Of a DNA stretch of 64,000 bases, positions 2,862 to 6,677 are shown piece after piece (the first letter of the stretch is position 1; each line of letters opens with the position of its first letter). The notes under the pieces are model-generated. The model did no database searches. It saw only the letters and a list, made by a program, of their open reading frames with translations, and was not told where the DNA came from. Both the position numbers and the translations under genes were made by a program. This DNA comes from Escherichia coli (lineage in GTDB: Bacteria; Pseudomonadota; Gammaproteobacteria; Enterobacterales; Enterobacteriaceae), in NCBI RefSeq assembly GCF_051903065.1, contig NZ_CP178438.1; one strand, 5' to 3'.

Positions 2862-5060
2862 ATGTCGACTCCTGACAATCACGGCAAGAAAGCCCCTCAA
2901 TTTGCTGCGTTCAAACCGCTAACCACGGTACAGAACGCCAACGACTGTTGCTGCGACGGCGCATGCTCCAGCACGCCACCTCTTTCTGAAAACGTCTCCG
3001 GCACCCGCTATAGCTGGAAAGTCAGCGGCATGGACTGCGCCGCCTGTGCGCGCAAGGTAGAAAACGCCGTGCGCCAGCTTGCAGGCGTGAATCAGGTGCA
3101 GGTGTTGTTCGCCACCGAAAAACTGGTGGTGGATGCCGACAATGACATCCGTGCCCAGGTTGAATCTGCGGTGCAAAAAGCGGGCTATTCCCTGCGCGAT
3201 GAACAGGCCGCCGAAGAACAACAAGAATCGCGCCTGAAAGAGAATCTGCCGCTGATTACGCTAATCGTGATGATGGCAATCAGCTGGGGTCTGGAGCAGT
3301 TCAATCATCCGTTCGGGCAACTGGCGTTTATCGCGACCACGCTGGTTGGGCTGTACCCGATTGCTCGTCAGGCATTACGGCTGATCAAATCCGGCAGCTA
3401 CTTCGCCATTGAAACCTTAATGAGCGTAGCTGCTATTGGTGCGCTGTTTATTGGCGCAACGGCTGAAGCTGCGATGGTGTTGCTGCTGTTTTTGATTGGT
3501 GAACGACTGGAAGGCTGGGCCGCCAGCCGCGCGCGTCAGGGCGTTAGCGCGTTGATGGCGCTGAAACCAGAAACCGCCACGCGCCTGCGTAACGGTGAGC
3601 GGGAAGAGGTGGCGATTAACAGCCTGCGCCCTGGCGATGTGATTGAAGTTGCGGCGGGCGGGCGTTTGCCTGCCGACGGTAAACTGCTCTCGCCCTTTGC
3701 CAGTTTTGATGAAAGCGCCCTGACCGGCGAATCCATTCCGGTGGAGCGCGCAACGGGCGATAAAGTCCCTGCTGGAGCCACCAGCGTAGACCGTCTGGTA
3801 ACGCTGGAAGTGCTGTCAGAACCGGGTGCCAGCGCCATTGACCGGATTCTGAAACTGATCGAAGAAGCCGAAGAGCGTCGCGCCCCCATTGAGCGGTTTA
3901 TCGACCGTTTCAGCCGTATTTATACGCCAGCAATTATGGCCGTCGCCCTGCTGGTAACGCTGGTACCGCCGCTGCTGTTTGCCGCCAGCTGGCAAGAGTG
4001 GATTTATAAAGGGCTGACGCTGCTGCTGATTGGCTGCCCATGTGCGTTAGTTATCTCCACGCCCGCGGCGATTACCTCCGGGCTGGCAGCAGCGGCACGT
4101 CGTGGGGCGTTAATTAAAGGCGGTGCGGCGCTGGAGCAGCTAGGTCGTGTTACCCAGGTGGCGTTTGATAAAACCGGTACGCTGACCGTCGGTAAACCGC
4201 GCGTTACCGCGATTCATCCGGCAACGGGTATTAGTGAATCTGAACTGCTGACACTGGCGGCGGCGGTCGAGCAAGGCGCGACGCATCCACTGGCGCAGGC
4301 CATCGTGCGCGAAGCACAGGTTGCTGCACTCGCCATTCCCGCCGCCGAATCACAGCGGGCGCTGGTCGGGTCTGGCATTGAAGCGCAGGTTAACGGTGAG
4401 CGCGTATTGATTTGCGCTGCCGGGAAACATCCCGCTGATGCATTTGCTGGTTTAATTAACGAACTGGAAAGCGCCGGGCAAACGGTAGTGCTGGTAGTAC
4501 GTAACGATGACGTGCTTGGTGTCATTGCGTTACAGGATACCCTGCGCGCCGATGCTGCAACTGCCATCAGTGAACTGAACGCGCTGGGCGTCAAAGGGGT
4601 GATCCTCACCGGCGATAATCCACGCGCAGCGGCGGCAATTGCCGGGGAGCTGGGGCTGGAGTTTAAAGCGGGCCTGTTGCCGGAAGATAAAGTCAAAGCG
4701 GTGACCGAGCTGAATCAACATGCGCCGCTGGCGATGGTCGGTGACGGTATTAACGACGCGCCAGCGATGAAAGCTGCCGCCATCGGGATTGCAATGGGCA
4801 GCGGCACAGACGTGGCGCTGGAAACCGCCGACGCAGCATTAACCCATAACCACCTGCGCGGTCTGGTGCAAATGATTGAACTGGCACGCGCCACTCACGC
4901 CAATATCCGCCAGAACATCACTATTGCGCTGGGGCTGAAAGGGATCTTCCTCGTCACCACGCTGTTAGGAATGACCGGACTATGGCTGGCGGTGCTGGCA
5001 GATACGGGTGCGACGGTGCTGGTAACGGCGAATGCGTTAAGGTTGTTGCGCAGGAAATAA
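2862..5060 (+). CDS. zntA: Zn/Cd/Pb-exporting P1B-type ATPase ZntA
   Basis: 732 aa; N-terminal metal-binding GMDCAAC, CPC transmembrane motif (IGCPCALV), DKTGTLT phosphorylation motif, GDGINDAP. Confidence 0.95.
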   Translation: MSTPDNHGKKAPQFAAFKPLTTVQNANDCCCDGACSSTPPLSENVSGTRYSWKVSGMDCAACARKVENAVRQLAGVNQVQVLFATEKLVVDADNDIRAQVESAVQKAGYSLRDEQAAEEQQESRLKENLPLITLIVMMAISWGLEQFNHPFGQLAFIATTLVGLYPIARQALRLIKSGSYFAIETLMSVAAIGALFIGATAEAAMVLLLFLIGERLEGWAASRARQGVSALMALKPETATRLRNGEREEVAINSLRPGDVIEVAAGGRLPADGKLLSPFASFDESALTGESIPVERATGDKVPAGATSVDRLVTLEVLSEPGASAIDRILKLIEEAEERRAPIERFIDRFSRIYTPAIMAVALLVTLVPPLLFAASWQEWIYKGLTLLLIGCPCALVISTPAAITSGLAAAARRGALIKGGAALEQLGRVTQVAFDKTGTLTVGKPRVTAIHPATGISESELLTLAAAVEQGATHPLAQAIVREAQVAALAIPAAESQRALVGSGIEAQVNGERVLICAAGKHPADAFAGLINELESAGQTVVLVVRNDDVLGVIALQDTLRADAATAISELNALGVKGVILTGDNPRAAAAIAGELGLEFKAGLLPEDKVKAVTELNQHAPLAMVGDGINDAPAMKAAAIGIAMGSGTDVALETADAALTHNHLRGLVQMIELARATHANIRQNITIALGLKGIFLVTTLLGMTGLWLAVLADTGATVLVTANALRLLRRK

Positions 5061-5092
5061 AGGTGTTGCCTGATAGCCTCTGGCTATCAGGG

Positions 5093-5401
5093 TTAGTGCT
5101 GGGCCGGGAACGGTGGCATGGTCAGGAAAGTGTAATATAGCGCTAACATCAGAATGACGGAGATAACACAACATGTAGCAACCAGGCGGGACGTGAATGA
5201 TGGCCTTTTGAACATCAACCACAGGGCATAAGCAAGCCCGACGCCGTTAAGTAAAGGTAAAAAAATCATTAGCCAGAGCCAACCACAGGCAAGTACCCCC
5301 AGCCATCCCCCCACGGCGATTAAAACAGGCATCAGCCAATTGGGGGCGAACATCGCGAACAATCCCAGCAATCCCAGGCAAACAGGAATTAAATAATCCA
5401 T
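5093..5401 (-). CDS. Hypothetical small Trp-rich membrane protein (uncertain)
   Basis: 102-aa ORF with 3 predicted TM segments and E. coli-like codon usage in the zntA/tusA convergent spacer; weak Shine-Dalgarno; identity not recognised. Confidence 0.3.
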   Translation of the reverse strand: MDYLIPVCLGLLGLFAMFAPNWLMPVLIAVGGWLGVLACGWLWLMIFLPLLNGVGLAYALWLMFKRPSFTSRLVATCCVISVILMLALYYTFLTMPPFPAQH

Positions 5402-5425
5402 TTGTGTATTCCATTACACTTGCTT

Positions 5426-5530
5426 GCCGGATGCGGCGTGAACGCCTTATCCGTCCTACGTACCGGTTTCAAGCAGCAACATTGAGTGCGATCGGTCCCC
5501 TCGCCCCTCAGGGGAGAGGGTTAGGGTAAC
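5426..5530. repeat. REP/BIME-like extragenic palindromic repeats
   Basis: GCCGGATGCGGCGTGAACGCCTTATCCGTCCTACG matches the REP consensus; followed by a second palindromic unit CCCCTCAGGGGAGAGGG. Confidence 0.6.
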
Positions 5531-5545
5531 AGTCCGTGATCCACC

Positions 5546-5791
5546 TTAACCACCTTTACGAATCAAATAACGATAAGGCAGTCCATCCGTCTCTTTGGCA
5601 ACCAGTTCGTGTTCCATAAAGGTACAAAACCCAGGGATATCGCGGGTCGTCGCCGGATCGTCAGCAATAATCAGCAACGTTTCACCTGGCTGCATATTGC
5701 GCACTGTTTTGCGCACCATCATTACGGGTTCCGGGCAGCGCAGGCCAAGTGCGTCGAGTGTGTGGTCAGGGCTGGAAAAGAGATCGGTCAT
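5546..5791 (-). CDS. tusA: Sulfur carrier protein TusA
   Basis: 81 aa with CPxP motif (LRCPEPV), TusA/SirA fold signature. Confidence 0.9.
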
Positions 5792-6011
5792 TTTCTTCTC
5801 ATCACATAAAAAAACGGCGCTAGTTTACGCCCTGTGAGTCCGTAAGCAAACCAGGTTAACGATTGCGTGAAAATTAACCATTGCATTGTCAACGTAAAGC
5901 AGTATCATGCGGCGGCTCGAAAAAAGGGTAAGCACGTTATTATGTTAAGGTAACAGACGTGTCGTACGTATTGGGTTCCCTCACCCCAATGGTTAATCAA
6001 AAAGGTACAAT

Positions 6012-6677
6012 ATGAACGTTTTCTCGCAAACTCAACGCTATAAGGCGTTGTTCTGGTTATCGTTATTTCATCTGCTGGTGATCACCTCCAGTAACTATCT
6101 GGTTCAGCTTCCCGTCTCCATTTTTGGTTTCCATACCACCTGGGGCGCGTTTAGCTTTCCGTTTATCTTTCTCGCTACCGACCTGACCGTACGTATTTTT
6201 GGCGCACCGCTGGCCCGTCGTATCATCTTTGCGGTGATGATCCCGGCATTGCTGATCTCCTACGTCATCTCGTCGCTATTCTATATGGGTTCCTGGCAGG
6301 GATTCGGCGCACTCGCCCACTTCAACCTGTTTGTCGCCCGTATCGCCACCGCCAGTTTCATGGCCTACGCGCTGGGACAGATCCTCGACGTGCACGTTTT
6401 TAACCGCCTGCGTCAGAGTCGCCGCTGGTGGCTGGCACCGACAGCGTCCACACTGTTCGGTAACGTCAGCGACACGCTGGCCTTTTTCTTCATTGCCTTC
6501 TGGCGTAGCCCGGATGCCTTTATGGCTGAACACTGGATGGAAATCGCGCTGGTCGATTACTGTTTCAAAGTGTTAATCAGTATCGTTTTCTTCCTGCCAA
6601 TGTATGGCGTATTACTCAATATGCTGTTGAAAAGACTGGCAGATAAATCCGAAATCAACGCTTTGCAGGCGAGTTAA
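6012..6677 (+). CDS. yhhQ: Queuosine precursor transporter YhhQ
   Basis: 221-aa polytopic membrane protein, synteny. Confidence 0.9.
   Translation: MNVFSQTQRYKALFWLSLFHLLVITSSNYLVQLPVSIFGFHTTWGAFSFPFIFLATDLTVRIFGAPLARRIIFAVMIPALLISYVISSLFYMGSWQGFGALAHFNLFVARIATASFMAYALGQILDVHVFNRLRQSRRWWLAPTASTLFGNVSDTLAFFFIAFWRSPDAFMAEHWMEIALVDYCFKVLISIVFFLPMYGVLLNMLLKRLADKSEINALQAS

Follow-up and report, generated by a model that had tools for sequence, protein, structure and literature searches.

A 102-codon open reading frame (ORF) in the spacer between zntA and tusA of Escherichia coli is probably an expressed, functional and dispensable gene for a small hydrophobic inner-membrane protein, as judged from comparative sequence analysis. 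The ORF lies in a 64,000-nucleotide stretch of E. coli DNA, referred to as the window, in which the genes yhhM, yhhN, zntA, tusA, yhhQ, dcrB and yhhS mark the E. coli zntA-tusA region. The first-pass annotation of this DNA had described the ORF as unannotated-looking and had left it as either a small membrane protein or a chance ORF. The first description does not hold, as the product is identical to WP_000385059.1 (annotated in locus L001) and to UniProt entry A0A066QZ38 (A0A066QZ38_ECOLX) and is called a 'hypothetical protein' by PGAP/RefSeq in every carrier genome listed. On the second point, the comparative evidence favours a genuine gene. The ORF thus appears as a genuine-looking, already annotated hypothetical gene that is weakly constrained, restricted to Escherichia, accessory and ordinary. 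Its importance goes little beyond annotation hygiene: it is a real-looking orphan gene, overlooked by resources centred on K-12 since that strain does not have it. Provided that it is expressed, the number of uncharacterised small membrane proteins in the accessory genome of E. coli would rise by one. Literature searches with the accessions, with zntA/tusA, with TusA and small membrane proteins, and with DUF2004 returned nothing relevant.

Locus layout and predicted product

The convergent genes zntA and tusA are separated by a spacer of 485 bp, which contains the ORF. From the zntA side, the order of elements is the zntA stop, a hairpin, the ORF stop, the ORF ATG, a GGAA motif, a REP repeat, a GC-rich palindrome and the tusA stop. 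The ORF listing bears out the ATG-to-TAA frame of 102 codons that had been placed on the minus strand at 5093-5401. The features of the region are as follows.

2862-5060, plus strand: zntA, with its stop at 5058-5060
5064-5459 (approximate), no strand: segment missing from K-12-type E. coli (hairpin, ORF and REP), from an alignment and from spans of 417 bp versus 801 bp
5069-5091, no strand: hairpin with a 10-bp stem, CCTGATAGCC-TCT-GGCTATCAGG, in the 32-bp gap between the zntA and ORF stops
5093-5401, minus strand: the 102-codon ORF, with ATG at 5401-5399 and TAA at 5095-5093
5259-5265, no strand: A7 run on the plus strand (T7 in the ORF, codons 46-48), site of the -1 frameshift of the 61-aa alleles
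5402-5425, minus strand: ORF initiation region, with a weak Shine-Dalgarno-like GGAA at 5409-5412 (-11 to -8), the sole such element
5426-5459, no strand: palindromic repeat of REP type, in the stretch from tusA to the ORF and 25 nt 5' of the ATG
5496-5530, no strand: GC-rich palindromic repeat with a predicted stem just 3' of the tusA stop, also present in the K-12-type spacer
5546-5791, minus strand: tusA, upstream of the ORF and in the same direction, with its stop at 5546

The weak Shine-Dalgarno element and the REP near the ORF start, both pointed out in the first-pass annotation, are found as described. The 14 nt immediately 5' of the ATG (GGAATnCAnAAATG) are kept in 10 of 10 aligned Escherichia sequences, and the pattern AGTGTAATGGAAT[AG]CA[CGA]AAATGG at the ORF start is kept in eight of 10. 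A GGAAT element also stands at similar spacing in the Escherichia loci and in a Superficieibacter-like homologue (L017) described below. The identification of the repeat at 5426-5459 as a REP rests partly on the REP consensus, and the palindrome at 5496-5530 is presumably Box C-like. A REP lies upstream of the ORF in all compared Escherichia loci, where the copy number of adjacent REPs varies, and for an 801-bp query that includes the REP the median number of matching places in an E. coli genome is 19. Rfam has a single match here, to the REP-derived family naRNA4; it is sub-threshold, spans 5385-5456 and covers only the first 17 nt of the ORF.

The stretch between tusA and the ORF (window 5402-5545; L002, L004, L005, L012 and L013) differs from strain to strain and among species mainly in the number of REP copies and in the presence of the Box C-like palindrome, and E4742, L009 and MOD1-EC7003 carry an additional insertion of ~25-35 bp between the REP and the Shine-Dalgarno element. 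The hairpin at 5069-5091 has a predicted fold of -17.8 kcal/mol (z -2.35) and was not called by the terminator scan as a canonical intrinsic terminator in either direction. In E. whittamii its loop is inverted (window 5079-5081; L012 ~3320-3335), reading AGA for TCT on an unchanged stem, as if the palindrome had flipped.

The product is very hydrophobic and rich in tryptophan, as had been claimed, with a GRAVY of 1.35; of its 102 residues, 22 are Leu and 5 are Trp. Leaving aside H102 at the C-terminus, its charged residues are D2, K65, R66 and R72 only; none of its four Cys is invariant in the family. Two further claims of the first-pass annotation have to be revised. About three transmembrane segments had been proposed, and AlphaFold2 gives four helices (4-18, 24-39, 41-65 and 69-94) at modest confidence (pLDDT 70.7). 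Codon usage had been called ordinary for E. coli, and the codon adaptation index (CAI) of the ORF, 0.548, lies under the range of the 29 long genes in the window, whose mean is 0.687 (sd 0.05) and whose minimum is 0.576, the reference being the window's own 29 ORFs of at least 300 codons. Out-of-frame spurious ORFs have a mean CAI of 0.603, which is above that of the ORF. An ATG-initiated ORF of at least 102 codons arises in 6.7% of mononucleotide shuffles of a 520-bp spacer. The length of the ORF by itself is thus within chance, and the case for a gene rests on conservation.

Distribution and selection on the reading frame

Among 5426 complete E. coli genomes, 317 (~6%) have the ORF, always as one chromosomal copy, and its segment is absent from ~94% of E. 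coli including K-12, a distribution that is invisible from the window sequence alone. All 40 of the sampled E. coli carrier rows have an ORF of 309 or 318 bp that is annotated as a CDS. Among the carriers, 49 genomes hold alleles at least 99% identical to that of the window, while 265 hold a second allele class at 90-95% identity. Window positions 4900-5700 are 100% identical to E. coli ECNB21-M121, and the ORF is 100% identical to that of O145:H28 strains such as RM13514. The exact protein A0A066QZ38 is encoded on at least 1000 contigs, and related alleles, including WP_000385056.1 and WP_000385055.1, are 77-99% identical to it over 100% of its length and occupy the same locus. K-12/C600, REL606 and most other E. 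coli lack a segment of ~390 bp comprising the hairpin, the ORF and the REP; THO-006 is among the strains that lack the ORF and keep REPs.

Beyond E. coli, the ORF occupies the same site between tusA and zntA in E. marmotae, Escherichia sp. E4742, E. whittamii and the E. albertii type strain, as well as in Escherichia sp. E1V33, MOD1-EC7003 and other sampled cryptic Escherichia lineages; it is absent from E. fergusonii. The order tusA-ORF-zntA, with the ORF co-directional with tusA, is found in all of loci L001, L002, L005-L016, L019-L023 and L028-L031. This distribution is most simply read as that of a gene which the Escherichia ancestor had and which most E. coli have lost by deletion.

Intact alleles show the signature of a coding sequence. 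The 12 distinct intact alleles of the tree set and four further E. coli alleles have 102 codons, or 105 with an in-frame 9-bp insertion. They come from six or more Escherichia lineages and carry no frameshifting indel, the only length variants being the in-frame 9-bp insertions (duplications). The mean DNA difference among the 12 alleles is ~9%, and the ORF is intact in each of the two E. coli allele classes, which differ by ~8-9% in DNA. When changes are placed by parsimony on a neighbour-joining tree of the 12 alleles, 68 synonymous and 77 non-synonymous events result, and the substitutions are distributed over the three codon positions as 43/29/73 (chi-square p 3e-5). The tree-based omega is 0.39-0.49 depending on kappa and is below 1 with a binomial p of 2e-5 to 2e-8. 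Non-synonymous changes are nearly all hydrophobic-for-hydrophobic (swaps among I, L, V, M, A and F), and the C-terminal half, with an omega of 0.31, is under tighter constraint than the N-terminal half (0.58). Conservation and dN/dS, proposed in the first-pass annotation among the ways to check the ORF, speak for it: the frame is kept in intact alleles, substitutions are codon-periodic and dN/dS is below 1.

Several properties of these figures temper their reading. The mean pairwise dN/dS of the ORF (Nei-Gojobori) is 0.43, and in the same genomes that of tusA is 0.032, of yhhQ 0.016, of dcrB 0.068 and of zntA 0.031, so that an omega of ~0.4-0.5 for the ORF is 6-25 times that of its neighbours. 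Some of the intact alleles were collected from protein databases, so that intact ORFs are favoured in the sample, and this partial ascertainment inflates the apparent significance of the probability that the ORF would stay intact after 145 random substitutions (5e-4). The antisense frame that shares third positions has a similar omega of 0.38, though it contains stops.

Disrupted alleles also exist. One E. albertii strain (L015) has a stop at W33, and E. coli B093 and its relatives (L016) have a -1 frameshift in the T7 run that leaves 61 aa. Frameshifts in orthologous regions, which had been named as evidence that would refute the ORF, are confined to a minority of alleles, if disruptions of all kinds are counted (E. 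coli B093, one E. albertii strain and some E. marmotae). In the frameshifted E. marmotae and E. coli alleles, gene callers start in an alternative frame; the T7-run frameshift itself could be slippage or a sequencing error. Taken together, the selection signature and the disrupted alleles indicate that selection is real but weak and that the gene is expendable.

At four-fold degenerate sites, 11 of 36 positions segregate in the ORF, compared with 330 of 621 in the pooled neighbours (Fisher p 0.01), and dcrB is equally low with 25 of 82. The low variability of the ORF at these sites may reflect extra nucleotide-level constraint or recombination history.

A putative tusA-side cassette and competing readings

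A profile search run exhaustively over 1.84e9 representative proteins returned a sole relative beyond the Escherichia cluster and its fragments, an 83-aa protein (P0039, E 9.4e-5). Pairwise BLASTP aligns it with the ORF product at 36% identity over 83 aa (E 1e-14), and a C-terminal FPAQH is common to both; with P0039 as the query, the search returned P0039 itself only. The P0039 gene lies on a single contig (L017), 36 bp downstream of tusA and on the same strand, and the TusA of this contig clusters with Superficieibacter. Right after tusA, a segment of 911 bp (L017 405-1315) replaces the 132-bp spacer (L024 3747-3878) of Superficieibacter genomes, with flanks that are 94.6% and 97.7% identical to the cassette-free Superficieibacter genomes. 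The insertion holds the small ORF and a convergent gene of 162 aa. Superficieibacter genomes with the same TusA lack the ORF, which makes the distant homologue an accessory insertion there too. In L017, zntA is not adjacent to the homologue, and the Superficieibacter locus has a GntR-family gene in its place. The conserved context is the tusA linkage only, not that to zntA.

The second gene of this insertion, which NCBI names 'DUF2004 domain-containing protein', encodes 162-165 aa, is convergent to the small ORF and is 64% identical across the two genera. Three Escherichia genomes have it in the interval from the small ORF to zntA: the E. albertii type strain, Escherichia sp. MOD1-EC7003 and E. 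coli GF4-3, the last a complete genome. Its protein has no Pfam or NCBIfam match, and its AlphaFold2 model (pLDDT 46.5) is too poor for a fold search. The gene was located at the following positions.

L022 3369-3866, minus strand: DUF2004 gene
L021 3378-3872, minus strand: DUF2004 gene
L033 1569-2063, minus strand: DUF2004 gene
L017 688-1176, minus strand: DUF2004 gene, in the Superficieibacter-like insertion
L032 3001-3567: DUF2004 gene, in E. fergusonii

The window lacks the DUF2004 gene, whose expected place is the gap at 5061-5092. The hairpin between the ORF and zntA is conserved in loci that have the ORF only and is missing from those with the DUF2004 gene. In E. fergusonii and E. coli 6EVA the DUF2004 gene leaves no space for the small ORF, in 316 E. 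coli genomes the small ORF occurs by itself, and K-12 has neither gene. The small ORF and the DUF2004 gene thus look like an old cassette, the halves of which were lost independently. In the E. fergusonii locus, zntA is called as two pieces of 468 aa and 218 aa (L032 764-2964), which suggests that zntA is disrupted in that strain.

Presence and absence of the cassette are polymorphic on the same side of tusA in two genera, and this linkage is the sole lead towards function. A functional tie of the cassette to TusA, as a membrane tether or modulator of the sulfur relay, or to the metal-efflux ATPase encoded by zntA would be a long shot. If true, the cassette, having arrived or survived precisely on the 3' side of tusA in both genera, would be a so far unrecognised accessory module in sulfur or metal homeostasis, with a presence that varies within species. 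The combinations found in nature (both genes, ORF only, DUF2004 only, neither) form a presence/absence series suited to function tests.

Some observations count against a functional gene: omega is high compared with the neighbours, CAI is poor, the Shine-Dalgarno element is weak, no promoter was found, most strains have lost the ORF and disrupted alleles occur. Much of this would be expected of a decaying relic, that is, an ancestral cassette gene now near-neutral in E. coli and neither expressed nor useful in the window strain. The loss from ~94% of E. coli, the recurring frameshifts and one nonsense mutation, the omega relative to neighbours, the poor codon usage, the lack of a recognisable promoter and the prior deletion of the DUF2004 partner in the window strain all point that way. 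We nevertheless consider a relic unlikely, given an omega significantly below 1 with codon-periodic substitutions across Escherichia alleles, a 309- or 318-bp ORF in every one of the 40 sampled E. coli carriers, and the intactness of both E. coli allele classes at a DNA divergence of ~8-9%. A still less probable reading is that no protein is made and that a chance ORF sits in a spacer conserved for another reason, as a 3' UTR of zntA/tusA or as an RNA element. Such an origin would suit an ORF whose length is not beyond chance, with its weak Shine-Dalgarno element and poor codon usage, and nucleotide-level constraint could explain the four-fold site counts (11/36 versus 330/621, p 0.01). The equally low four-fold variability of dcrB (25/82) weakens the last point, however, and Rfam offers naRNA4 alone, below threshold and over the first 17 nt of the ORF. 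The third-position excess, the omega below 1, the conservative hydrophobic replacements and the restriction of indels in intact alleles to in-frame ones are those of a coding sequence, and the homologue of 36% identity keeps its ORF at a DNA divergence where non-coding sequence would not.

A small, hydrophobic product, a strain-variable presence and a convergent pairing with a second small gene in some genomes would also be compatible with the membrane toxin of a toxin-antitoxin-like or toxin-immunity pair, with either an antisense RNA or the DUF2004 protein as its counterpart. We regard this as extremely unlikely. At 102 aa and about four helices, the product is far larger than type I toxins, the consensus scan found no antisense promoter, and PADLOC and PHROG gave no hits. 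The occurrence of the ORF only in 316 E. coli and of the DUF2004 gene only in E. fergusonii and E. coli 6EVA is incompatible with obligate dependence, and independent loss of the two halves argues against an obligate toxin-antidote relationship.

Under the preferred reading, that of a functional and dispensable small membrane protein gene, the product would be an integral protein of the inner membrane, with 102 residues and about four helices. Its sole charged loop (K65-R66...R72; KRPSxxSR) is predicted by the positive-inside rule to be cytoplasmic, which would leave the N-terminus in the periplasm together with the conserved tail FP[AP]Q[HR] at the C-terminus. The ORF would be the surviving half of the old tusA-side cassette, its DUF2004 partner having been deleted in the window strain and both genes having gone from most E. 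coli. The consensus scan found neither a sigma-70-like promoter nor an intrinsic terminator between tusA and the ORF, and the distant homologue lies 36 bp from tusA; on these grounds, transcription would most likely be low-level read-through that passes from tusA through both kinds of repeat, Box C-like and REP. Translation would initiate at the weak Shine-Dalgarno element. Purifying selection on it is weak and mainly preserves the hydrophobic helices and the C-terminal half. The product has no intramembrane polar residues, tolerates hydrophobic swaps and is encoded by an easily lost gene; these features are more in keeping with a non-enzymatic protein that has an accessory or structural role in the membrane than with a transporter or an enzyme.

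Comparison with known families and systems

Searches of known families leave the product without a name. Pfam-A has no family at E ≤ 1 for it, PADLOC gave no matches, the best PHROGs hit has an E of 0.33 only, and NCBIfam has no significant match. Foldseek of the AlphaFold2 model against the PDB retrieved generic helical bundles only, all with an E of at least 0.99. The group of WP_000385059.1 and A0A066QZ38 is the same gene, identical in sequence, and likewise has no name and no Pfam or NCBIfam family.

The sole named family with any hit is the cation/H+ antiporter subunit MrpF/MnhF (Mrp type; NF009243), which is like the ORF product in size and in its several hydrophobic helices. The match scores 15 bits against a cut-off of 95 bits, the corresponding chain in the PDB (6u8y chain B) has an E of 0.91, and no mrp genes are nearby; the likeness probably comes from composition.

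An origin of the ORF N-terminus by inverted duplication of the last ZntA helix was examined on account of a metagenome contig end (L018 3001-3198, protein P0037) in which ORF codons 1-34 are joined to the sense strand of the final 23 codons of zntA. BLASTP gives 14 identities over 35 positions (E 0.039) in a region chosen post hoc, which is not significant. The junction of P0037 lies at the shared ATGGCTGG and would need an inversion centred on the hairpin, and the fusion is probably an assembly or amplification chimera.

Type I toxins such as Hok, TisB, Ldr and Ibs are likewise encoded by small, hydrophobic, intergenic and strain-variable ORFs near repeats. They are single-helix peptides under ~60 aa, and the antisense RNA that serves as antitoxin is encoded next to the toxin gene or overlaps it. 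The ORF product is two to five times longer and has multiple helices, no antisense RNA gene was detected, and the consensus scan of 4950-6050 found no promoter-like sites on either strand.

A second comparison is with small accessory proteins of the E. coli inner membrane. KdpF of the Kdp P-type ATPase, AcrZ, MgtS and CydX are single-helix proteins under ~50 aa that are usually co-transcribed with their partner. The ORF product shares with KdpF-like proteins its short length, its hydrophobicity, its lack of enzymatic motifs and a gene position beside a P-type ATPase, here zntA; a modulating or accessory function would be expected of such a protein. A KdpF-like regulator of this ATPase is not what the locus suggests, as the ORF is convergent to zntA, encodes 102 aa with ~four helices and has tusA, not zntA, as its cross-genus neighbour.

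The tusA linkage invites a last comparison. TusA-family proteins are known to be paired with membrane proteins, as in YeeD with YeeE/TsuA and YedF with YedE. YeeE and YedE have ~350-400 aa, around 9-10 transmembrane helices and conserved cysteines. A relationship with them is not detectable in the ORF product, which is without any Pfam match and has four Cys, none of them invariant. The likeness is one of arrangement, in that the ORF, too, is a membrane-protein gene beside a TusA-family sulfur-carrier gene.
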